Shown in pieces: positions 1-15,429 of a DNA stretch of 15,429 bases. A program made the position numbers and the translations under genes. Under the pieces are notes generated by a model. The model did not search any database and was not told where the DNA came from. It was given only the letters and a program-made list of their open reading frames with translations. The stretch lies in the IMG/VR virus record IMGVR_UViG_2540341028_000012, one strand, 5' to 3'. Positions within the stretch are counted from its first letter, which is position 1; the number at the start of each line of letters is the position of its first letter. The stretch comes from a virus. Its lineage: Duplodnaviria > Heunggongvirae > Uroviricota > Caudoviricetes.

Positions 1-10
1 TCCCCCTTCA

Positions 11-40
11 AGGCGCTGCATCGACAGCGCCTTTTCTTTA
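11..40 (+). terminator. Rho-independent terminator for a gene lying upstream of the window
   Basis: 8-bp GC-rich stem AGGCGCTG (11-18) / CAGCGCCT (25-32), 6-nt loop, followed by TTTCTTTA on the + strand. Confidence 0.5.
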
Positions 41-140
41 TAAATTCCTAAAGTTGTTTTCTTGCGATTTTGTCTCTCTCTAACCCGCATAAATACTGGT
101 AGCATCTGCATTCAACTGGATAAAATTACAGGGATGCAGA

Positions 141-371
141 ATGAGACACTTTATCTATCAGGACGAAAAATCACATAAATTCTGGGCAGTTGAGCAACAG
201 GGAAACGAGTTGCATATCAGTTGGGGAAAAGTTGGCACCAAAGGGCAAAGCCAGATAAAAAGTTTTTCAGATGCTGCGGCAGCGGCAAAAGCGGAGCTTA
301 AGCTGATTGCGGAGAAGGTGAAGAAGGGGTATGTGGAGCAAGCGAAGGATAATGAGGTGTACTGGCAATAG
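141..371 (+). CDS. WGR-domain protein, N-terminal portion (MolR-like); native sequence ends at 352, last 6 codons and stop come from the IS end
   Basis: ORF track 76 aa; W-G-K/R motif (ISWGKVGTKGQ) and KKGY ending typical of WGR domains; SD-like AGGGA 6 nt upstream of ATG; reading frame runs into IS terminal repeat starting at 353. Confidence 0.55.
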   Translation: MRHFIYQDEKSHKFWAVEQQGNELHISWGKVGTKGQSQIKSFSDAAAAAKAELKLIAEKVKKGYVEQAKDNEVYWQ

Positions 372-395
372 CGGACACTACCATTTGTTCTTTTT

Positions 396-1214
396 TTAAG
401 CAGCCATCTGATGATATTTTTCCCTGAAGGCTGCCGGGGAGATATTCCCCAGACGAGAGTGACGACGCTGACGATTGTAGAAAATCTCAATGTATTCCCG
501 TATTACTGAGATGGCTTCATCCCGGTTATTAAAACGATAGTGGCTCAGGCTCTCATTTTTCAGCGTTCCCCAGAAGCTTTCCATCGGAGCGTTGTCGTAA
601 CAGTGACCTTTACGCGACATTGATGTTTTCAGACCAGACTGCTCCTGTATGACCCGGTAATCGTATGCGCAGTACTGTGAACCTCGATCAGAGTGGTGGA
701 TTAGCCCGGCAGGTGGGCGCTGGCTCCTGAGCGCCATAAACAGGGCTTTACCTGTCAGCTCTTTTGTCATGCGCTCTCCCATGGCGTAGCCGACAATTTC
801 GCACGTATAAACATCTTTGATGCCAGCGAGGTACAACCATCCCTCCTGTGTGGCAACATACGTCAGGTCCGCCACCCAGACCTGATTTGGTGCTGTAGGA
901 GCGAACGTCTGGTTCAGCAGATTTGGCGCAACTGGCAGATTGTGGTTCGGGTTCGTAGTCGCTCTGAACTTGCGTTTCTGCTTACAGCGTAGCCTTAGCT
1001 CCTTACGAAGACGTGCCAGTCGGTCACGACCAACGATGATGCCATTCTCTGCCAGCTCCGTCTGGAGCCGCCGGATTCCATATGTTTCGCGAGTGCGGAT
1101 ATGTGCCACCTTAATCTCCAGTTTTAGCCGCTCATCACTTTGTTTTCTGTCTGAGGGTTCATGCTGTACCCAGTTGTAATAACCGCTCCTGGATACACCA
1201 AATACCTGACACAT
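396..1214 (-). CDS. IS600-like OrfB (DDE transposase catalytic domain)
   Basis: ORF track 272 aa; IS3-family OrfB motifs (HSDRGSQY, CYDNAPMESFWGTLK); normally expressed as OrfAB by -1 frameshift. Confidence 0.85.
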   Translation of the reverse strand: MCQVFGVSRSGYYNWVQHEPSDRKQSDERLKLEIKVAHIRTRETYGIRRLQTELAENGIIVGRDRLARLRKELRLRCKQKRKFRATTNPNHNLPVAPNLLNQTFAPTAPNQVWVADLTYVATQEGWLYLAGIKDVYTCEIVGYAMGERMTKELTGKALFMALRSQRPPAGLIHHSDRGSQYCAYDYRVIQEQSGLKTSMSRKGHCYDNAPMESFWGTLKNESLSHYRFNNRDEAISVIREYIEIFYNRQRRHSRLGNISPAAFREKYHQMAA

Positions 1215-1263
1215 CGCTTCAATGGGAAATTGTTGTCGCCATTGTTCGATTAACGCGTATTTT

Positions 1264-1551
1264 TCAGCGACTCCTGTGCAAAATACGCTGTTGCTTTTTT
1301 AATATATCTCGCTCAAGGCGAGCTTCATTTAACGCCTTACGCAGTTGCAGAATTTCAGATTCCAGTTCAGCCACCGTGCGGGAACCAGGAGTACCGAGCC
1401 CTTTTCTGGCGGCGGTAACCCATTGTCCTAAAGTGCCTTCAGGAAGGGATAATCGGGAAGCGCCTTCACTGACCGAAAGTTGATTTTCAAGAACCGTTCT
1501 GACAGCTTCGGCTTTGAACTCTTTAGAGTAACGTTGGTTTTTTCTGCTCAT
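1264..1551 (-). CDS. IS600-like OrfA (HTH transposase subunit), C-terminus altered by 1-nt contraction in the frameshift run
   Basis: ORF track 95 aa MSRKNQRYSKEFKAEAVRTVLENQ...; ends ...ILKKQQRILHRSR instead of ...ILKKATAYFAQESLKNTR seen in copy 2. Confidence 0.8.
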   Translation of the reverse strand: MSRKNQRYSKEFKAEAVRTVLENQLSVSEGASRLSLPEGTLGQWVTAARKGLGTPGSRTVAELESEILQLRKALNEARLERDILKKQQRILHRSR

Positions 1552-1615
1552 TATTAGCTCCTTCTGATGCCATTCTATTTCAGGAAGGAGTGTCCGTTAA
1601 ACTCAGGCTACCTCA

Positions 1616-2197
1616 ATGTGTTGCGTCATATCAATCATCCGTTCGCATTGACACTGCTTATACGTGTAGCCGGGCAAACTAAACGCTGTCACGATCGGAT
1701 GACGAAAGCCATTGCTGCGTTCCCACATGCAGCAATGGCGGCACTGACGGAACTTCTTGGGCAAAAAGAAGAGAACAGTTGGCGCATTATGCTAATGACA
1801 ATGCTTATCTCACAACCAGCACTGGCAGAACAGGTCCTTCCCTGGCTCTCGACACCCGCAGTTGCCGTACTGAAATCATACCAGCAACAACTGACACAGC
1901 CCTCAAACCATGCCTGCGCCGATCTACTGCCTGCCGTATTAGTCTCACCGCCCTGGCTTTCGAAAAAGAAAAAATCTGTAATGCCGGTATTGGATTTAAC
2001 GCCATTACCGTTGGAGTCATGCTGTACATTGACTGAGACGGCAGAAAAAGAGATTCATACAAGGCATCGCTGGCACGCACATCAAATAGACATCGGCCAA
2101 AAAGAGGATATTCAGAACTACCTGGCACGTCTGGGTTTCAATCGCTGGAATAATGGCCAGTATATGAAAGCGTCTGATGCTGTTGTAGAACTCTGGC
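1616..2197 (+). pseudogene. Internal fragment of a larger gene (possibly remainder of the MolR-like gene), bounded by IS600 at 5' and IS911 at 3'
   Basis: Open frame continuous across whole interval (part of track ORF 1567-2271 whose Met lies inside the IS and whose stop lies inside IS911); no own start or stop. Confidence 0.4.
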
Positions 2198-2205
2198 TGA
2201 AGTGG

Positions 2206-3373
<1,168 letters not shown>

Positions 3374-3445
3374 TGGAGCACCTGTGTTGTTCTGAGGTGA
3401 GCATATCACCTCTGTTCAGGTGGCCAAATTCAGTGTGCCACTTCA

Positions 3446-3506
<61 letters not shown>

Positions 3507-3509
3507 ATA

Positions 3510-3585
<76 letters not shown>

Positions 3586-3587
3586 GC

Positions 3588-3664
3588 TGGCCCACCACCG
3601 AGGACTCGAACCTCGCACCGTCAACTTAGAAGGTTGATGCTCTATCCGGATGAGCTAGTGGTGG
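3588..3664 (-). tRNA. tRNA-Arg (anticodon UCU, reads AGA)
   Basis: Reverse complement CCACCACTAGCTCATCCGGATAGAGCATCAACCTTCTAAGTTGACGGTGCGAGGTTCGAGTCCTCGGTGGTGGGCCA; perfect acceptor and T stems, anticodon loop CTTCTAA, encoded CCA. Confidence 0.8.
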
Positions 3665-3665
3665 T

Positions 3666-3742
3666 TGGTGGCCCTTGCTGGACTTGAACCAGCGACCTGG
3701 CGATTATGAGTCGCTCGCTCTGACCAACTGAGCTAAAGGGCC
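3666..3742 (-). tRNA. tRNA with CAU anticodon, ileX-like (probable lysidine tRNA-Ile2 reading AUA; elongator Met not excluded)
   Basis: Reverse complement GGCCCTTTAGCTCAGTTGGTCAGAGCGAGCGACTCATAATCGCCAGGTCGCTGGTTCAAGTCCAGCAAGGGCCACCA; anticodon loop CTCATAA; resembles E. coli ileX from memory. Confidence 0.75.
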
Positions 3743-3751
3743 GGAGGCAGA

Positions 3752-3780
3752 ATAATAACCATATGTCATCACATCTGCAA
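3752..3780 (-). promoter_or_regulatory. Candidate sigma70 promoter for the tRNA cluster
   Basis: On minus strand -35 TTGCAG (3775-3780), 17-nt spacer, -10 TATTAT (3752-3757); predicted start about 2 nt upstream of the tRNA-CAU 5' end. Confidence 0.4.
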
Positions 3781-3830
3781 ACCCATCTGACCACCAGCAC
3801 GTTTAACGTCCTGTGCCGTTTTTCAGGTAT

Positions 3831-3852
3831 AAAAAAACCCGCATAAAGCGGG
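3831..3852 (-). terminator. Rho-independent terminator (minus strand) downstream of the small ORFs, upstream of the tRNA promoter
   Basis: Minus-strand stem CCCGC / GCGGG (3838-3842 / 3848-3852) with 5-nt loop followed by seven U (3831-3837). Confidence 0.5.
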
Positions 3853-3932
3853 CTCTTTCAAATGTCCATGTCTGCTATTCGCCTCGCGGTACAGCTTTGC
3901 GAAGCGTACAAGAATTGAAGCAGTTTTTTACG

Positions 3933-4196
3933 TCAAAAAGCAATAACTTTTTTCTCTATACCAAAAGCCATAACCATTGGTTTGTACAAAATAAATTCTG
4001 CCACCTTTAGCCAATGCTCAATGCGTCTTTCACAGGTTCTTAAACTCCATTTCGGGTGTGCATCATTCAGCAGTTCAGCCATTTTGCGTTTGGTCATCCC
4101 CCGCCCCTCATACCGTTGCCGAAGGACGCTAATCAATCCTGGATGCTCTGCCAGCACCTCACTTATGACCCGATCAATACATAACGCCTCTGGCAT
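3933..4196 (-). CDS. Hypothetical phage-associated protein (87 aa), unknown function
   Basis: ORF track 87 aa; overlaps upstream ORF by 23 nt in the +1 frame; followed by terminator at 3831-3852. Confidence 0.4.
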   Translation of the reverse strand: MPEALCIDRVISEVLAEHPGLISVLRQRYEGRGMTKRKMAELLNDAHPKWSLRTCERRIEHWLKVAEFILYKPMVMAFGIEKKVIAF

Positions 4197-4488
4197 CAGT
4201 ACAATGCGCCAGCCAGCTCTTTTGCTTACCGTTAATCATATCCCGCAAAAAAGCCTCAAGTTCAGACTTGTTCAGACCTGCTTTTTTCATCCTCCGGAGC
4301 GCCTCGTTAATTGCCGTTTTTGTCAGCTTTTTAGAGGCCAACAACTGGTTGAACATATTCCCCGTCTTACCGCCGCCAATATACGACCAGCGCCCCCACA
4401 TGCGCAGTTTTCCCTGAATCCAGACACTTTCCAGCGTGGTGAGACGAAGGTGTTCCCCGCTTTTGCCTGTATTTGTTGGGTAAATCAT
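4174..4488 (-). CDS. Hypothetical phage-associated protein (105 aa); weak resemblance to Q-type late antiterminator N-terminus, unverified
   Basis: Internal Met of track ORF 4174-4638 at 4488 preceded by GGAAGG SD-like sequence 6 nt upstream; the 5' 150 nt of the track ORF lie inside IS600 and are not native. Confidence 0.4.
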   Translation of the reverse strand: MIYPTNTGKSGEHLRLTTLESVWIQGKLRMWGRWSYIGGGKTGNMFNQLLASKKLTKTAINEALRRMKKAGLNKSELEAFLRDMINGKQKSWLAHCTDARGVMY

Positions 4489-4543
4489 AAATAACCTTCC
4501 TGAGGTGTACTGGCAATAGCGGACACTACCATTTGTTCTTTTT

Positions 4544-5362
4544 TTAAGCAGCCATCTGATGATATTTTTCCCTGAAGGCTGCCGGGGAGATATTCCCCAG
4601 ACGAGAGTGACGACGCTGACGATTGTAGAAAATCTCAATGTATTCCCGTATTACTGAGATGGCTTCATCCCGGTTATTAAAACGATAGTGGCTCAGGCTC
4701 TCATTTTTCAGCGTTCCCCAGAAGCTTTCCATCGGAGCGTTGTCGTAACAGTGACCTTTACGCGACATTGATGTTTTCAGACCAGACTGCTCCTGTATGA
4801 CCCGGTAATCGTATGCGCAGTACTGTGAACCTCGATCAGAGTGGTGGATTAGCCCGGCAGGTGGGCGCTGGCTCCTGAGCGCCATAAACAGGGCTTTACC
4901 TGTCAGCTCTTTTGTCATGCGCTCTCCCATGGCGTAGCCGACAATTTCGCACGTATAAACATCTTTGATGCCAGCGAGGTACAACCATCCCTCCTGTGTG
5001 GCAACATACGTCAGGTCCGCCACCCAGACCTGATTTGGTGCTGTAGGAGCGAACGTCTGGTTCAGCAGATTTGGCGCAACTGGCAGATTGTGGTTCGGGT
5101 TCGTAGTCGCTCTGAACTTGCGTTTCTGCTTACAGCGTAGCCTTAGCTCCTTACGAAGACGTGCCAGTCGGTCACGACCAACGATGATGCCATTCTCTGC
5201 CAGCTCCGTCTGGAGCCGCCGGGTTCCATATGTTTCGCGAGTGCGGATATGTGCCACCTTAATCTCCAGTTTTAGCCGCTCATCACTTTGTTTTCTGTCT
5301 GAGGGTTCATGCTGTACCCAGTTGTAATAACCGCTCCTGGATACACCAAATACCTGACACAT
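4544..5362 (-). CDS. IS600-like OrfB (DDE transposase catalytic domain)
   Basis: ORF track 272 aa; one substitution versus copy 1 (ETYGTRR vs ETYGIRR); -1 frame relative to orfA through the A7 run. Confidence 0.85.
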   Translation of the reverse strand: MCQVFGVSRSGYYNWVQHEPSDRKQSDERLKLEIKVAHIRTRETYGTRRLQTELAENGIIVGRDRLARLRKELRLRCKQKRKFRATTNPNHNLPVAPNLLNQTFAPTAPNQVWVADLTYVATQEGWLYLAGIKDVYTCEIVGYAMGERMTKELTGKALFMALRSQRPPAGLIHHSDRGSQYCAYDYRVIQEQSGLKTSMSRKGHCYDNAPMESFWGTLKNESLSHYRFNNRDEAISVIREYIEIFYNRQRRHSRLGNISPAAFREKYHQMAA

Positions 5363-5397
5363 CGCTTCAATGGGAAATTGTTGTCGCCATTGTTCGA

Positions 5398-5700
5398 TTA
5401 ACGCGTATTTTTCAGCGACTCCTGTGCAAAATACGCTGTTGCTTTTTTTAATATATCTCGCTCAAGGCGAGCTTCATTTAACGCCTTACGCAGTTGCAGA
5501 ATTTCAGATTCCAGTTCAGCCACCGTGCGGGAACCAGGAGTACCGAGCCCTTTTCTGGCGGCGGTAACCCATTGTCCTAAAGTGCCTTCAGGAAGGGATA
5601 ATCGGGAAGCGCCTTCACTGATCGAAAGTTGATTTTCAAGAACCGTTCTGACAGCTTCGGCTTTGAACTCTTTAGAGTAACGTTGGTTTTTTCTGCTCAT
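5398..5700 (-). CDS. IS600-like OrfA (HTH transposase subunit)
   Basis: ORF track 100 aa ending ...RDILKKATAYFAQESLKNTR, typical IS3-family OrfA C-terminus; slippery A AAA AAA at the LKK codons. Confidence 0.85.
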   Translation of the reverse strand: MSRKNQRYSKEFKAEAVRTVLENQLSISEGASRLSLPEGTLGQWVTAARKGLGTPGSRTVAELESEILQLRKALNEARLERDILKKATAYFAQESLKNTR

Positions 5701-5756
5701 TATTAGCTCCTTCTGATGCCATTCTATTTCAGGAAGGAGTGTCCGTTAAACTCAGG

Positions 5757-8700
5757 CTACCTCACAACAACCAGCAAATCGCTGATACTTGCTGTGGGAT
5801 ACCAGCCATTTACCAGCCATGCCGATACAGAAAACTCCAGCGTCATGTGACCGTGACCGGCAGGCATATCAATAACACCCGTATATATCAGCGTATTATC
5901 CAGGGTCGTTCGGTTATAAATTTCAGCACCGTTTTTCTTCACTATCAGGCTGCATGACGAATAAATATTGTTATTCTTCCGCTCATGTTTAGCACCGCGA
6001 AACGCCACCGCGGGAATAACAATTTGCCGATCAAACGGCTGATCGTCATAAACCCTGACGGTAATGGTCCCTGATGGCCACCTCTCCGGTGCCCGGGAGT
6101 CCCGTGGGAAAGGTTTGCCCACTGTTTTAACGAGATCGCCTTCAATCTGGTTCGCGGACAATTTTCCCAGAACCCGACAGTTCTTATTAATCGTGACGTT
6201 GTTGAGCGTCCCGGAGTTCGCGTTCACGTTACCGCTGATATCGGCATTTTTCGCCGTCAGCCGTCCGCCAGGTGTCAGGGAAAATGCCGGAGGATTACCG
6301 CCGCTGGTAATGGTCGGAGCCGTCAGGCGTTTCAGGAACACGTCGTTCATGAATATCTGATCGCCCTGACCAACAAACATCGGCTTTGTGTTGCCATTCG
6401 CAGGATTAATCATCGCAATCCTGTCTGCCGCCAGCAGCACCTGACTCTGCATTCCTGCTGGCGTATTCTCAATACCGGCACCGATACCCGCAATATAAAG
6501 GCGTCCGTCCTTCATCTGTTGCAGCTTCACAGCCCACATGCTGTTCAGGTTATTATTTGTATCAACCTGAACTTTCTGTATCTGCTGGATTGCAGCACTC
6601 TGATTTTCCAGTTTTTTATTGACGGTTTGCGTGATTTCATTGCTGACATTCGTAATGGACGTCCTGATTTCAGTCAGGTCCGGCGCAAGCTGACCGTTAT
6701 CAATCTGCGTCCACAACTCCTTGCCGAGATGCGTGTTATTGATCAACCCTTTATAAAAACTCAGATAACCTTCCGCATCATCGCTCGCCCGACCGACGGC
6801 CTCCACAAATGCCGATTTGCCAACGGTGTTCACACTGCGAACGTAAAAATAATAATCATGGCCCGGCCTGATATTGATACTGGCGGCTATCCAGTACAGC
6901 GCCGTGCCAAGATAGCGGGCGCTGGTTTCAACCTGCCTGATATCCGCAATCCGCTTTTCCGAAAACCAGAACTCAAACTGCACCGTCGGGTCGTATACAG
7001 CCAGTTTCGGGACCGCCGTTATCTGAAAATACCCCGGTATCAGTTCAATAGTGACAGGCGCTGCCGGTGCCGCAATCCGGAACGATACCGACGCCGGATC
7101 GCCCTGCTGCCCCCGGGCATTTACCGCCCGGACTGTCAGACTGTAATTCCCCAGCGCCAGCTGCCTGAAGCGGTATGTGGTTTCCGTCGTCCTGGCTGTG
7201 CTGACCAGCCGCTCACTGCCGTCGTCCGCTGCCACGGTCAGGCGAAGCAGGAAGCTCACACCCTTCACCACCTTCGGCGTGTCCCATCGCGCCAGCACCT
7301 GATATTCCCCGCTGTCTGCGGTGACTTCGGCGGTCAGATGCTGCACCGCTGGCGGCGTGACACCATTCACCGTGCCGCGCCGGTCACCGTCAAAGTGTGC
7401 CCCGTTATCCACGATGGCCTCTTTTTCCGGCACATGCTGCACGGCGGTGATGGCATACGTGCCGTCGTCGTTCTCACGGATACTCACGCAGCGGAACAGG
7501 CGCTGGCGCAGCGTCGGCAGCTTCAGCCCCCACACGCTGTATTCTGCAACGCCGTCAGGAACCCGGCTCACTTTCACCTTCACGCCGTCGGTGACGGACT
7601 GAACCTCCACGCTGACCGGATTGCCATTTCCGTCAACCAGGCTTATCAGCGTGGTACAGGAGGACGGCAGCGTGATTTCACGGTCGAGCGTCAGCGTCCG
7701 GGTCTGGCTGTTCACCGCCAGTACGCGACCACCGGTGCTGATACCGGCATAATCATCATCGCAGATTTCAATGACATCACCCGGTACATGGCGAAGCCCT
7801 TCTGCGCCGACGCTGAAGTCCACGGTCTGCGTTTCCAGCAGTTCCGTTTTAATCAGCCACAGCCCGGCGCGGTGCGCCTGTCCCCGGCTGGTACAGCCAA
7901 AGGCATCCATCTTCGTGACGTTACGACCGTAACGGAGAATGGCCTGCGCGTCCTCCACAAGCTCTGTCGCCGTCTCATGACCGTTGTCCGGATCAATCCA
8001 GTTCACCTCAACGACATTATGGCGGTCCTTCAGGGCGCTGAAGCTGTAGCGGAACGGCGCGCCATCATCCGGCATCACCACATTACTGCGGTTATAGGTC
8101 CACACTTTATCCGACGGTCGGTCCTGCACGAACGTCAGCGTCTGCCCGTTCCATACCGGCATACAGCGCATCGCCGAGCAGAAATCACTGAGAACATCCC
8201 ACGCCTTACGCTGTGTGGTCAGGTAAGCGTTACAGGTGATGCGCGGCTCCGTGCCGCCAAATCCGTCCGGCACTGACTGGTCGCAGTACTGGCCGATGAC
8301 ATACAGCGCCCATTTGTCCACATCTGCCGCACCAAGACGTTTCCCCATGCCGTAGCGCGGATGAGTGAGCATGTCCCACCGACACCAGGCCATGTTGTTG
8401 CTGTATGCTGGCTTAAGCGTTCCGTCCCAGATACCGCTGTATTGCCGCGTCTGCGGGTTATAGTTCGACGGCACCTGCAGAATGCGCCCGCGAAGATGAT
8501 AATTGCGACTCACCTGCTGGTTACCGAACTGCTCTGAATCCACCTGCACGCCGACCAGCGCCGTGTTCGGGTAGCACTGTTTCACATCGATGATTTCGGT
8601 GTACGACGACCAGAGCGTTTTGTTCTGCAGCTGGTCTGTGGTGCTGTCCGGTGTCATCCTGCGCATCCGGATATTAAACGGGCGCGGCGGCAGGTTACCC

Positions 8701-9206
8701 ACCACCACCGAGGCCAGATACTGCGAAGTGGTTTTGCCCTTAATGGTGATGTCTTTTTCCGTCACCCAGCCACCGTTACGCTGTATCTGAACCAGCAGGC
8801 GGACTTCCGACGGATTCCGGTCCCCCTTTGAGGTGTTTTCCACCAGTGCCTGCACACTGAAGGTCAGGCGCAGACGATCAATGTTTGCCGACGTGATGGT
8901 CCGGGTGATCGGCGTGTCGTATTTCACTTCCGTACCCAGCACAGTCTCTGAGCCGGAAGATTCAAACCCCTCCGGCGGTGTCTGCTCCTGCTCGCCGGCG
9001 CGGAACACCACCGTAACACCGGAAAAGTTTGTCTTCCCCTCGCTGTCCAGGACTGGCGTACCGTTCAGCAGCACGCTTTTTAATCCATCCACCGGACCGT
9101 CAACCGGCCCTTCGCTGATGGCATCAATCACACTCAGCAACTGCGTGGATTTCAGGTTGTCCTTCGCTTCGCGCGGGGTATGCCCCTTACTGCTGCCTTT
9201 ACCCAT
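5757..9206 (-). CDS. J: Lambda-like tail tip / host specificity protein J, extreme C-terminus replaced by IS600 end (native part 5765-9206)
   Basis: ORF track 1149 aa; N-terminal about 900 aa closely match lambda gpJ as I recall it ([34 protein letters not shown]...); last codons and stop lie inside IS600 terminal repeat. Confidence 0.9.
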
Positions 9207-9266: not shown

Positions 9267-9908
9267 TCAGCGACCAATCACCACAACCTGACCACCATCC
9301 CCTTCGTCTGCCGTGCTGATCTCCTGAGATACCACCCGCGACCCCACGCGCATTTCACCGTACAGAACAGGCAGAACATTGCCCTGGGCAACCATGTTAT
9401 CCAGTGAGGAGAAACAGGTGTTCTGTTTGCCGTTATCCGTTGTCTGTGTACGGGGAGTTCTGGCTTTCGGTGCCAGCATCTGTGCAACACCGCCAAGCGT
9501 CATACTGGCACCGAGAGAAAACAGCAGATTACTCGCCATAATTCCTACCCCCGGCATCCATATAGCAACCGCCATAACAGCTGCCCCCAGCACCGCCTGA
9601 AACACACCGCCACTTTTAGCTCCCACCAGACGCGGTACTATGTGGATCACTGCACCATTTGCCAGCGGCTCATTAAGACGGGCAGACAATTCGGTTTCAC
9701 CTGCATCACGCCCGGCAATGCGCACCTGATACCAGCCGTCACTCAGTTTCTGACGAAACGCCGGGAGCTGTGTGGCCAGTGCGCGGATGGCTTCAGCCCC
9801 CGTTTTCACACGAAGGTCGATGCGGCGGCCAAATCGTTGCAAATCCCCGTAAAGGCAGATGCGTGCCATTCCCGGTGACGCCAGAGGGAGTGTGTGCGTC
9901 GCTGCCAT
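9267..9908 (-). CDS. I: Lambda-like tail assembly protein I
   Basis: ORF track 213 aa MAATHTLPLASPGMARICLYGDLQRFGRRIDLRVKTGAEAIRALATQL...; start overlaps K 3' end by 103 nt as in lambda. Confidence 0.85.
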   Translation of the reverse strand: MAATHTLPLASPGMARICLYGDLQRFGRRIDLRVKTGAEAIRALATQLPAFRQKLSDGWYQVRIAGRDAGETELSARLNEPLANGAVIHIVPRLVGAKSGGVFQAVLGAAVMAVAIWMPGVGIMASNLLFSLGASMTLGGVAQMLAPKARTPRTQTTDNGKQNTCFSSLDNMVAQGNVLPVLYGEMRVGSRVVSQEISTADEGDGGQVVVIGR

Positions 9909-10549
9909 TTGTCGGTATACCTCTCTCGTTTACTCAGTTGTTCAGGAATATGGTGCAGCAGCTCACCGTCGCCGCAGTAAATGGCGGCATGATTCGGCAC
10001 CGATGAACCAAAACAGCACAGCAGCACATCGCCCGGTTGTGCTGATGACAACGGCACCTGATACAGCCCTGTGGCCTCCAGATTATCCAGATAGAGATTC
10101 TGACCGTGACGCCACCAGTCATCCCCGCGATGAAAATCCGGCATCTCAATCCCCGCCAGATGATAAGCATCCCGGAACAGCGTGTAACAGTCCGTCACCC
10201 CGTGCTCAAAGCGCCGCCCGGTGAGATGCGGCACACAGCGGAACTTGTGAATCGCCCCCCGGCAGACCAGCCACCACGGCAAATCACTCTGCACCTGCAG
10301 CCGCCGGTCAGCCTCACTCAGCCAGGGCAGACCACCGGGATGACTGTGGACCAGTGCCACAATCTCCCCCTGCATCTCTGCCCGCAGCCAGTCTTCCGGT
10401 GCGATACGAAAATACGCCTCCGGCTCTGCAGAAATATTCACACAAGGGATATACCGCTCCCCCTCCGGCGTTCTCACCACGAAGCCACACGACTCCGCTG
10501 GCGCACATCGCCGGGCGTGCGCCAGAATCGCTGATTCTGTCTGTGTCAT
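9806..10549 (-). CDS. K: Lambda-like tail assembly protein K (JAMM/MPN plus NlpC/P60-type domains)
   Basis: Internal start MTQTESAILAHARRCAPAESCGF... within track ORF 9806-10813, 4 nt after L stop; JAMM motif HSHPGGLPWLSEAD (HxHx7Sx2D); Cys (GVTDCYTLF) and His (NHAAIY) of an NlpC/P60-like fold. Confidence 0.85.
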   Translation of the reverse strand: MTQTESAILAHARRCAPAESCGFVVRTPEGERYIPCVNISAEPEAYFRIAPEDWLRAEMQGEIVALVHSHPGGLPWLSEADRRLQVQSDLPWWLVCRGAIHKFRCVPHLTGRRFEHGVTDCYTLFRDAYHLAGIEMPDFHRGDDWWRHGQNLYLDNLEATGLYQVPLSSAQPGDVLLCCFGSSVPNHAAIYCGDGELLHHIPEQLSKRERYTDKWQRRTHSLWRHREWHASAFTGICNDLAAASTFV

Positions 10550-10553
10550 GGAT

Positions 10554-11253
10554 TTACTGAGAAAGTTTATTGATGGAAAGGAAACCGCCGAAATTACCGG
10601 TATTGTTGCGCAACTCACACCCGCGCATACACTTGCTGCATTTGTCCTTCCGGATATCCGTCGTTGGTTTGTCGAACTCGTCAGCCACTGCCCTGCCCGT
10701 GTAACCACACTCATCAGAACGGTAGGTCCACATACAGGTATTCGCCAGCATGATACGCCCCGGGAAAACCGCGCCATCCGTCTCCGTTGGTGTGGCCAGC
10801 ACAAAAGAGGCACTGACCGCGCTCAGTTCGCTGCACTGCTCGATGCGCCAGCGGCTGATCACCTCCTGCTCCGGATCGGCGTCACTGTTTCCGTTGACGA
10901 AGTTCACCGCATCCAGAAAACGGGCGTAAACCTTACGCCGGACCACCGTTCCGCCGACCAGACTCTGCAGATCTTCCGCCATCCCGGCGACCATACCGTA
11001 CAGGTTAGAAACCGTCAGCGTGGGGCGCGTACTGGTGCCTTTGCCATTCAGTTCAAAACCACTCCCCCTGAATGGGATACGGCTGATACTGTCGCCCCTG
11101 CCAGGTGACCGGCTCACCTTTTTCGTTCTGCTCATTACAGAAAAAATAACGTTCTCCACCGACCTCTGTCAGGTCGATTTCCCAGAGCACCACGCTGGCC
11201 GACTGCTCCGCACGGGTGCATTCATTCAGTGTTTCCTGCCGGATATCCTGCAT
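10554..11253 (-). pseudogene. L: Lambda-like minor tail protein L, frameshifted
   Basis: N-terminal 66 aa (11053-11253, MQDIRQETLNECTRAEQSASVVLWEIDL...) and C-terminal part (from 10554) are in different frames; junction at a C5/G5 run (11064-11068) where lambda L reads QGSGFELNGKG. Confidence 0.75.
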
Positions 11254-11582
11254 CAGTTCACCACCTGTTCAAAATCGGCCGTTACAGTCACCCATAACGC
11301 CCCCACGCTTGCCGACCATTTACGACAAGCCACCCTGATCGGTTTCCAGTCATAAGGTGGCGTCCACTGAAATGCGCGGACGCCACCGTGCCGTTCCAGA
11401 AAGGCTTTTAAAGGTGGGTGTTCACCTTTACGAACACGTATCGTCACGCTGTAAGTCGACAGCAGATTATTCAGTCCCGCCGGGCGACGCTGTTCATAAC
11501 CATCACCCAGCTTCACTGCCACCACTTTTGGCTCTGATACCACATTCATATCCGGGCGCACCTTCCAGCGAAACGTCTCCAT
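11253..11582 (-). CDS. M: Lambda-like minor tail protein M
   Basis: ORF track 109 aa METFRWKVRPDMNVV..., same length as lambda gpM; start overlaps H stop (TAATG), stop overlaps L start. Confidence 0.8.
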   Translation of the reverse strand: METFRWKVRPDMNVVSEPKVVAVKLGDGYEQRRPAGLNNLLSTYSVTIRVRKGEHPPLKAFLERHGGVRAFQWTPPYDWKPIRVACRKWSASVGALWVTVTADFEQVVN

Positions 11583-14500
11583 TACCGGTATGCTCCACTT
11601 AACCGGCCACCATCACGGGCCTGCTGTTGCATAAAGTCCGCGGCCGCTTTTTTCCCGAGGTCATAAACCACCTTCAGTGCTGCCGGACCTATCTGCCCGT
11701 TCGTGCCGTCGTTATTGATCCCGATGTTGTACTGCGGGGCAAACATCACCATGCCTGAACCACCAGTATCCGCCACAACCCCCAGCTTACCATCAGCACC
11801 GCGACGCAGTGGCAGAATGGCTTCAGGTCCCGCTTCCCCCATCACACCCGCGCCTTTTGCAAAAGCAAAAAACGTCGGACGGTTAACCACCGTGCCACTG
11901 TAGCGACTCAAATCAGCAGACTGGTAAACACCGCCATCAGCATTAGTCGTGAAGCCGAATAAAGAGCCGACGCCCTTTACCGCCTGCATCATGGCCATCT
12001 GTGCCATAATTCTGGCCATATCTGACAACAGGGAAGAGGTGAAGGATTTAAAATTCAGCTTACCGGTGGTACAGAATGTCGCCAGTGCATTACCGGCACT
12101 GCTGAATGCCACTGTAAACATCTGTTCTGCCGTTCCCACCGCATTATCCGCATCCGCCGTAAAATTCTGAAACGCCCGCATGGCACCGTTTTTCCAGTCG
12201 CCCTGCGCCACTTCCAGTTCCTGCCAGTAGCGTTTGTTTTCATTCAGTTGTCGCTTCAGGCTCCCCTTCAGCACCTCCTCAGCCCTCCGGTAGTCCTCCG
12301 TCCCGTAAGTGCCTTTCTGGCGACTGTCATTCTCAAGCTGTTGCAACTGTTGCCGGTATTCCTGCCGGATGCGCAACTGTGCCTGGTAGCGCTGCCGCTG
12401 CTTATCCCCCATACCTGCAGTGGCAATATCCAGATTGTGCTGCTCACGCAGTGCACGTTCTTTGTCTGCCAGCTGGCTGGTCAGCTGAACCGTTTTTTTT
12501 CTCAGGTCGTTAAGCGCTGTCTGTTTCTGCAGCTCCTGCTGTTTCACATCCAGCAGCGTCAGCGCCTGAATCAGCTCATTCTTACGGGCCAGCACACTCT
12601 TTTCATCTGCCGTCAGCTTTTTCCCGTCCAGGTCGCTGATGCGCTGCTGCAGGGCCAGAAGCTGTTTATGCGCTTCAGTCATCCTTTCAGTGGCAATGCC
12701 TGCTGACTGTCTGGCAGCAGCAATCTGCCCTTCCACCTGTGCCTGCTGCTGACTGTACTGCAGCAATAACCGGGTGGCCTCATCATTACGGGTTGCCCGT
12801 GTATTTTTCTTAATGGCTTTTTCGTAACGTTCATTTTCACGCTGTATCGCCGCATCCCTGACAGCCTGGTCGGCGTACTGCATGGCATTAATACGCGCAA
12901 TTTCCCGCTGATGTCGTGCAGCTTCCGTTTCATTCATCCGGTTCAGCGCGGCATTTTCAGCATTCCGGCGTTTCTGTTGCTCCTGGTAATTCCGTTCTGC
13001 CTGCGCTTTTGCATCCTGCAAATCCTTCCGGCGTTTTTTCTCCTGAAGATCGTTAAGACGCTGCTGATCGTACTCCACCTGTGTGGAGGCGTTTGTCCAC
13101 GGATATTTTTTCGCGCGCTGAATTTTTTCCTGTAACGCATCAATCTGCGCATCCAGCGAGTCTTCACGACCAATATTCATGGCCGCATCCCAGAACTGCT
13201 TCCACCAGTCAGACAAGGTTTGCAGCGTACTACCCAGCGCATTGAGATTATTATCAATATCAGATGTGCGTTTACCGGTTTCCTCTGCCAGCGCAGACAT
13301 GGCGATCCGGGCCGCATCACTGGACCGCCCCTGCTCCCCAAGGACGCGTATCTGCTCAAGCTGAGTGGCAGTCAAAAAATGCAGCGCATTGTCCAGCGCC
13401 TTCGCGGCATTTACAGGATCATCCTTCAGCCGCTTAAACTGATTTATGGTATCGCTGACCGACTGGCCAACCGATCGCTCCATCTGTGCGGCAGCTTTCG
13501 CCACCATACCAATATCGTTTCCATGAAATGCCCCACTGCCCACCACCTGTGCCAGCGCACCGGCTGCCGCATGTTGCGTGATACCATTCCCGGATATGGC
13601 CCGGCTGAGTTTCCACAACTGCCCGACAGTGACACCGGCATAATGTCCCGTCAGCGCCAGCTGACGGTTAAATTCCTCGCCCTCCTTCCGGCCGTCATGC
13701 CAGGCTTTACCCAGACCCAGGACCGCCGCGACAAGTCCGCCAATAACGCCGCCAGTCATCATGCCTTTCGGCGACATCAGTGCGCCTGTCCATCCGGCAC
13801 GGTTAGCCAGCGTTATCCCGGATCCCCTCAGCGCACCAAAATTGCCGCGCGCCATCTGACTGATTAACACCCCCAGCTCCCGCCGGGCTGCCGCACTTTT
13901 CAGCCCCAGCGAATGTGTGGCTTTTCCTGCCCGCTCCATTTTGCGGATATACACTTCTGCAGCACTGCTTACCCCCAGCTGAGCCGCCCTGGCGCGAAGC
14001 AACTCAGAAGACGACAGATTCTGGCGGGTTGCCTGCTCTTTAAGCTGGCGGATAAACGCCGCTTTCTGCCGGGTGGCCTGTTCCTCTGCCTGCGTCAGGG
14101 CACGGGTTTTCGCCGTGATCTCCGAAATCAGCGCCAGATAATCCTGCTGACCAACCCCGCCACTGTTTCTGGCCTGTCGGATCTGCTGCTGAATACGCTG
14201 TAATTCCTGAAGCCCCGCACCGGCCTGTTTCACACTGTCAATCTGGCGATAAAAGGCGGCAGCCGCTTTATCCTGCGCCTCCGCCAGTGCCCTGGCCTGC
14301 GCCTGTTCCTCGCGCATTTTCTGATTCAGGGCATCCACGCGCAGACGGGTTTGTTCCACCTCACGGGCCATGCGTTCATGAGCCCGTGCATTCTTCTCCA
14401 CCGTCTGCGCATGGGCTGATGCTGCTGTTGCAGCCGAAGAAGCCGCATGCATTGTCTGCCGGGCCGCCTGAGTCTGACGCTCCATAAAACGCTGCATACG

Positions 14501-15168: not shown

Positions 15169-15429
15169 TGAACCGCCCCGGGAATCCTGGAGACTAAACT
15201 CCCTGAGAAAGAGGTAAACAGGATGACTAAAAATACTCGTTTTTCCCCCGAAGTCCGTCAGAGGGCGATTCGTATGGTTCTGGAAAGTCAGGGCGAATAT
15301 GACTCACAATGGGCGACAATTTGTTCCATTGCTCCAAAGATTGGCTGTACGCCGGAGACTCTGCGTGTCTGGGTTCGCCAGCATGAGCGGGATACCGGGG
15401 GCGGTGATGAAGGGCTCACCCCCCGTTGA
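15169..15429 (+). mobile_element. IS629/IS1203-like insertion sequence (IS3 family), left end only; continues beyond window
   Basis: Terminal sequence TGAACCGCCCCGGGAATCCTGGAGACTAAACTCCCTGAGAAAGAGGTAAACAGG followed by orfA start; matches my recollection of the IS629 left end. Confidence 0.75.
15223..15429 (+). CDS. IS629-like OrfA (partial, 3' end outside window)
   Basis: ORF track 68 aa MTKNTRFSPEVRQRAIRMVLESQGEYDSQWATICSIAPKIGCTPETLRVWVRQHERDTGGGD..., runs to window edge without a stop. Confidence 0.8.
   Translation: MTKNTRFSPEVRQRAIRMVLESQGEYDSQWATICSIAPKIGCTPETLRVWVRQHERDTGGGDEGLTPR

Follow-up and report, generated by a model that had tools for sequence, protein, structure and literature searches.

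The window analysed here, a 15,429-nucleotide (nt) stretch filed as the tailed-phage record IMGVR_UViG_2540341028_000012, contains two directly repeated copies of the insertion sequence (IS) IS600. They bracket a segment of 2885 base pairs (bp; 1616-4500) in which a fragment of the gene molR, a copy of IS911 and a slice of a lambdoid prophage are joined. Comparison with related loci indicates that this arrangement probably formed in two stages: IS600 and IS911 inserted in the ordinary way, and different copies of each IS later underwent homologous recombination with one another. The whole window matches contig AERO01000018.1 at 100%. This contig belongs to the draft assembly of Shigella flexneri CDC 796-83, serotype 6, a 454-era draft from 2011. 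Relatives were gathered by exact-protein look-ups using open reading frames (ORFs) that span the junctions, and related Shigella loci were obtained in this way. Fetched loci are given by their L numbers, and hyphens in short motifs mark insertion points.

None of the three complete IS in the window is flanked by a target-site duplication. In the preliminary description, IS600 copy 1 has the 3-bp flanks TAA/ATG, copy 2 has TCC/CAA and IS911 has GGC/GGA, and cross-combinations are noted not to match either; both readings hold. The missing duplications are informative because other IS600 and IS911 copies in the fetched loci do have them. Complete IS600 elements elsewhere show 3-bp repeats of CAA, TCC, AAT, CTC, ATC or GCT, and other IS911 copies show GGC or GCT. 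For IS600, absence is nevertheless common in these loci: six of the twelve distinct junction pairs in the fetched Shigella and Escherichia coli loci lack a duplication.

The left junction of the window IS911 is an insertion site in molR, located 582 bp beyond copy 1. This site is empty (CTCTGGC-AGAGGGG) in L009 and in E. coli L002. Six loci (L004, L006, L007, L008, L010, L011), which include the serotype 6 genomes CCH060 and 64-5500, contain GGC-IS911-GGC at the same position, followed by the remaining part of molR. In the window, the right junction instead lies inside a phage tRNA-Gly gene. The element, with the ends TGAAGTGG...CCACTTCA, is nearly identical to annotated IS911 and has TG...CA termini, and a duplication at this site is seen in the relatives only.

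A similar picture is obtained for copy 2. Gene J, which encodes the tail tip, is intact at 1159 amino acids (aa), with an empty site GTTGTTG-TGATGAAG, in four loci (L043, L045, L048, L049); we take L043 (CP000036) to be S. boydii Sb227. In six loci (L015/L046, L040, L041, L044, L047), among them the serotype 6 genomes 64-5500 and CP055124, TTG-IS600-TTG is found at the same base of J (CAA/CAA in the orientation of the window), followed by the J tail, lom and ipaH. Copy 2 replaces the last 10 codons of J in the window, leaving a product of 1149 aa, and is identical over its full length to the J-resident copy and to the consensus. The pairing of IS600 with J in the first E. coli matches was set aside as a coincidence, since IS600 lies there in a tail-fibre gene of a different prophage.

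The other flank of copy 2 lies upstream of a Q-like late antiterminator gene. The corresponding site is empty in E. coli L022 (AACCTTCC-TTTCTCC) and in L023. In L024 (CP026866) it is filled as TCC-IS600-TCC, with ybcO on the far side. The same locus contains the full block of IS911, tRNAs, Q-like gene and IS600, collinear with window positions 2198-5762 at 99.66% identity. The junction of IS911 with the tRNA gene (IS911-GGAATCGAACC, that is, IS911-GGA-tRNA) is present in CP026866 and in two AKMY01 contigs, in each case unlinked to molR, and therefore predates the join observed in the window. Between these two junctions, the prophage slice (3446-4500, 1,055 bp) constitutes a piece of a lambdoid late-control region that separates the molR fragment and IS911 from copy 2 and J. 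E. coli CFSAN029787 contains this slice without interruption, at 99.5% identity, and the gene order there is DUF1367, ybcO/DUF1364, DUF1133, four tRNAs, holin and lysozyme. The tRNA-Gly gene of the window lacks its last 14 nt, which were removed by IS911; an intact annotated tRNA-Gly is found at L023 7987-8061.

Copy 1 has a different history. The two molR fragments that flank it are separated by 986 bp in E. coli L002, and the IS replaces exactly these 986 bp. Its junction pair TAA/ATG is present in all ten Shigella loci examined (L004-L013), and neither junction occurs in any of 5,426 complete E. coli genomes. An intermediate with the duplication and without the 986-bp loss was not found among the Shigella loci and the same E. 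coli genomes. The loss is older than the other exchanges, and could have come about by adjacent deletion or by recombination of two nearby IS600 copies.

The comparison leads to the following series of events. IS600 entered molR early, with loss of the adjoining 986 bp, giving the state common to all related Shigella loci. A further 582 bp into molR, IS911 inserted and GGC was duplicated. Prophage gene J received an IS600 ten codons before its end in serotype 6 genomes, with duplication of TTG. A lambdoid prophage acquired IS600 at a point 12 bp upstream of the Q-like gene, where TCC was duplicated, and IS911 in the fourth tRNA gene downstream. Finally, in the CDC 796-83 lineage, recombination would have taken place between the IS911 of molR and that of the tRNA gene, and between the IS600 upstream of Q and that in J. 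The first four steps are shown by the comparison of loci; only the fifth do we infer. As a result, each surviving IS would combine the left flank of one parent with the right flank of the other: copy 2 would be flanked on the left as the Q-upstream IS600 is and on the right as the J IS600 is, and the window IS911 on the left as the molR copy is and on the right as the tRNA copy is. The exchanges would have placed the 1,055-bp Q-tRNA slice between molR and J.

The preliminary description had attributed every junction to IS-mediated deletion or IS-IS recombination rather than simple insertion. Its central point, that the missing duplications indicate IS-IS recombination or deletion subsequent to insertion, is supported by the comparison, but the individual junctions themselves came from simple insertions. 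Of the six junctions, at least three and probably five were inherited unchanged, with only the pairing of left and right flanks being secondary. Alignment with related genomes, which had been proposed as a check, recovered the parental states and empty sites for the J, Q-upstream and molR-IS911 insertions. Relatives with the same junctions and matching repeats, which had been named as evidence against a secondary origin, do exist, yet in a form that supports recombination.

A sequence marker within IS911 agrees with this reading. All six molR-resident copies have T at column 249, while the window IS911 has C, as do copies at other sites, and carries the private variants G222A and C433A. The missing T249 and the private variants are what a hybrid IS911 would show. 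The exact IS911-tRNA-Gly junction pattern had no match in the GTDB species representatives.

Several observations weigh against the recombination scenario. The hybrid joins are seen only in the draft contig AERO01000018. A parental IS911 in tRNA-Gly with both flanks is absent from all fetched loci, and comparison of IS600 variants for mosaics revealed no crossover point, as copy 2 differs neither from the J-resident copy nor from the consensus, and L024 has private variants. The arrangement J-IS600-lom is kept in 18 of 18 chromosome-scale contigs with an identical tape-measure gene, and molR-IS911-molR is kept in L004 and L007, the serotype 6 complete genomes in which the molR locus was read. 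In addition, the single contig is compatible with inversion as well as deletion for the two later exchanges.

It is possible, though unlikely, that the arrangement is an artefact: the true CDC 796-83 genome would then be parental at these sites, and the 2011 assembler would have exited the near-identical IS911 and IS600 repeats on the wrong side and so strung short, IS-bounded unique segments into one contig. The restriction of the arrangement to one contig fits a mis-join, as do three consecutive IS boundaries unlike those of every chromosome-scale relative and the shortness of the unique segments between IS copies (582 and 1,055 bp). In this assembly, the contig that contains oacC breaks off at an IS (PMC4206707). 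Homopolymer indels are present too, one of which shifts the reading frame of the essential metG (AA to A, L005 ~8775, just upstream of the window). Because of these, the frameshifts in the window are suspect, and all 1-nt indels and frameshift calls (~1295-1300, 2414, 4193 and metG) may be sequencing errors. The IS copies on the contig, however, hold copy-specific variants rather than a collapsed consensus: copy 1 has two substitutions of its own, and IS911 has G222A and C433A. T249 is absent within 250 bp of the molR flank, where molR-anchored reads of a parental copy should show it. Furthermore, the junction of a third IS in the window (15169) is confirmed in the independent drafts L017-L019.

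Direct action of the transposase provides another route to junctions without duplications. IS3-family elements, to which both IS belong, can give adjacent deletions and inversions when their transposase is overproduced, so that the molR IS911 and the J IS600 could each have attacked a nearby target intramolecularly, with no second pre-existing copy. For the 986-bp molR loss beside copy 1, such joining, or recombination of two nearby copies, is possible. For the other two elements, the far-side junctions are nucleotide-identical to independent ones, namely the simple insertion TCC-IS600 in CP026866 and IS911-GGA-tRNA in CP026866 and AKMY01. Transposase-mediated joining is very unlikely because it needs an independent attack at exactly the same base twice, and homologous recombination of pre-existing copies is favoured because these junctions exist elsewhere to the nucleotide. 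Arrival of the 5.4-kb unit (353-5764) as an IS600 composite transposon has next to no probability. While two direct IS600 copies with complete outer ends would suit such an origin, the outer flanks TAA and CAA mismatch, each outer junction exists separately in relatives without the unit, and the unit is found nowhere besides AERO01000018. We rejected a composite transposon on the basis of the flanks and this distribution on a single contig.

Table 1 Features of the window and the evidence for each.
Feature	Position	Strand	Evidence
End of metG region and metG-molR intergenic spacer	1-140	+	Collinear with E. coli L002 7663-7802, downstream of annotated metG
molR 5' fragment, first 212 bp (WGR/DUF4132 gene), interrupted by IS600 copy 1	141-352	+	99.7% identity to E. 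coli L002 7803-8014
IS600 copy 1, 1263 bp, flanks TAA/ATG	353-1615	-	Repeat finding and pairwise alignment
molR internal fragment, 582 bp	1616-2197	+	99.1% identity to E. coli L002 9001-9582
IS911, 1248 bp, flanks GGC/GGA	2198-3445	-	99.7% identity to RefSeq-annotated IS911
5' part (61 nt) of phage tRNA-Gly(UCC) and 3-nt spacer to tRNA-Thr	3446-3509	-	Partial Rfam tRNA match 3443-3497
Three intact phage tRNA genes: Thr(UGU), Arg(UCU) and a CAU-anticodon tRNA	3510-3742	-	ARAGORN, Rfam, RefSeq annotation of L022/L023
DUF1133 (Q-like late antiterminator) gene, split	3933-4488	-	ORFs, Pfam DUF1133
12 bp upstream of the Q-like start codon (ribosome-binding site; ybcO/DUF1364 3' end)	4489-4500	-	Left junction of copy 2
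IS600 copy 2, 1264 bp, flanks TCC/CAA	4501-5764	-	Repeat finding and pairwise alignment
Lambda-type tail tip gene J	5765-9206	-	Pfam J domains
End of a third IS3-family element, cutting tail chaperone gene G	15169-15429	not assigned	Context, outside the IS600 pair

Both bracketing copies belong to IS600 of the IS3 family. They are 99.5-100% identical to annotated copies, with 99.5% for those labelled "IS3-like element IS600 family transposase" in RefSeq, start with TGAGG and end with CCTCA, and their products match the Pfam HTH_Tnp_1 and rve (DDE) transposase domains. The terminal inverted repeats TGAGGT...ACCTCA match at 19 of the first 30 terminal positions. The absence of duplications is secondary, and the membership stands. 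In length, TG...CA ends and the orfA/orfB arrangement with an A6G -1 frameshift, the window copies resemble the IS600 elements that have expanded in Shigella chromosomes and on pINV. No structural feature sets them apart; neither has a 3-bp duplication, which we attribute to the later rearrangement.

The two copies had been described as about 99.6% identical and in the same orientation. The orientation is as described, with both transposases on the minus strand, and the identity is slightly higher, at 1261 of 1264 positions (99.76%) in a pairwise alignment. The differences are an A/G substitution at 1075/5223, a C/T substitution at 1473/5622 and a T-run at 1295-1300 of copy 1 that is short by one T. 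In copy 2, orfA encodes 100 aa and ends over A AAA AAG, orfB encodes 272 aa, and the A6G frameshift motif is intact. In copy 1, the A-run at the orfA/orfB frameshift site lacks one base and orfA is reduced to 95 aa. This loss is also present in L009, which comes from a PacBio genome; it may be a homopolymer sequencing error. The 76-aa ORF called at 141-371 extends from molR into copy 1, and its product has a Pfam WGR match. In IS911, a change of GGG to GG splits orfB (~2414).

Mismatched IS911 flanks were also observed at other loci: TCT/AGG (L009 3679), TCT/CAT (L010 3832) and AGG/GGA (L024 reverse strand 8106). The recurrence of the triplets TCT and AGG between genomes suggests serial exchanges between IS911 copies across lineages.

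The copies of IS600 are direct repeats of 1264 bp with 99.76% identity, set 4,148 bp apart from start to start; near-identical direct repeats of 1 kb or more are what a deletable or amplifiable segment requires. If the two copies recombined through RecA, 4,148 bp would be lost and TAA-IS600-CAA would remain, joining molR' through a single IS600 to J. Loss or mobilisation of the bracketed segment, as put forward in the preliminary description, is plausible. No contig joining the 76-aa molR ORF to J via a single IS600 was found; most assemblies break at IS, so this absence says little. Amplification or deletion variants of the locus were likewise not found among the loci compared. It seems extremely doubtful that the 5.4-kb unit could be a functional amplifiable or mobilisable cassette, retained for its three intact phage tRNAs that match rare codons. 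If it were, the cassette would resemble in its behaviour the stx region of S. dysenteriae type 1, whose flanking IS repeats reportedly permit tandem amplification or deletion, but would tune tRNA supply instead of toxin dose.

The prophage slice itself is largely wrecked. The Q-like DUF1133 gene is split by a 1-nt C insertion near 4193 (C to CC). An intact homologue of 184 aa is found in E. coli L022, and in the exact-protein look-up the 104-aa fragment was found solely in this assembly. A scan of 3400-4600 for promoters and terminators gave nothing beyond the shuffle expectation. The three tRNAs within this otherwise damaged slice are intact, with anticodons that match AUA, AGA and ACA, which are rare codons in E. 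coli. The CAU-anticodon tRNA is annotated as Ile in the RefSeq relatives (L022, L023). In CP026866, the Q-upstream IS600 ends with CCTAA, not CCTCA (L024 ~8725-8727), so that the conserved terminal CA is mutated; this would probably immobilise that IS600 end. The contigs AKMY01000018 and AKMY01000024 (L038, L039), which belong to one draft genome, contain two copies of a module consisting of the Q C-terminus, tRNAs and IS911. The same draft has an additional IS911 within the Q-like gene, with a CCC(C) duplication. The AKMY01 copies suggest that an IS-bounded Q-tRNA module has been repeatedly duplicated or shuffled.

Beyond J, the window continues with the tail genes I, K, L and M and then the tape-measure gene. 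Gene L (within 9267-11600, which contains K and L) is called as two pieces of 66 and 146 aa, while intact L of other prophages has ~232 aa, and K is called at 211 aa as opposed to 247 aa in relatives. The sequence of the K/L region is identical in L015. The shorter K and the split L indicate that the tail module was already decaying independently of the IS events. At the far end, the third IS3-family element (15169-15429; L042 1-9350) has an orfA of 108 aa and an orfB of 295 aa and is 96% identical to the L004 and L007 copies. It truncates G and joins the prophage tail genes to ycaR-kdsB-mukFEB. Eighteen chromosome-scale relatives have glsA-GGDEF-IS66-Z-U-V-G on the G side instead. The 71-aa ORF of the truncated G was tried as a junction probe and discarded; it is not junction-specific and led to unrelated prophages. 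On the AERO01000018 contig, metG is linked to kdsB-mukFEB. We take these loci to lie at ~47 and ~21 min of the E. coli map, and their linkage therefore implies a large-scale rearrangement.

Five IS types have expanded in all Shigella, IS600 and IS911 among them; IS are described as promoting rearrangements and deletions between homologous copies and as probably one of the main reasons for gene loss (Hawkey et al. 2020, PMC7373316). In comparison with this genome-wide expansion, the window provides an example at a single locus. In experiments, two IS600 copies on pINV recombined and its type III secretion island was lost (Pilla et al. 2017, PMC5629016). As in these deletions, near-identical IS would serve as portable homology, and hybrid IS copies join flanks that were formerly distant. 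Unlike the pINV deletions, which were observed by experiment on a plasmid, the events in the window are chromosomal and deduced from genome comparison, and the deletion between copies 1 and 2 is predicted, with none observed. The stx region of S. dysenteriae type 1 is described as an IS-carrying prophage remnant with IS600 upstream of stx, for which spontaneous tandem amplification and deletion were reported (McDonough and Butterton 1999, cited in PMC7819885). Like the stx region, the window contains a remnant of a lambdoid prophage late region that carries IS copies in a Shigella chromosome. Its cargo differs, as it consists of a broken Q-like gene, three tRNAs, IS911 and a molR fragment, without toxin genes.

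The locus represents an already known phenomenon, the routine scrambling by IS in Shigella, and not a new kind of element; it reveals no new element, mechanism or function. It does constitute a clean worked example of how the Shigella chromosome is scrambled, with the parental states recovered for three of the four insertions, each with its duplication and empty site. As such, it can be used in teaching and in annotation, where hybrid IS copies can be flagged, and it cautions that any draft contig which passes through several IS should be checked.

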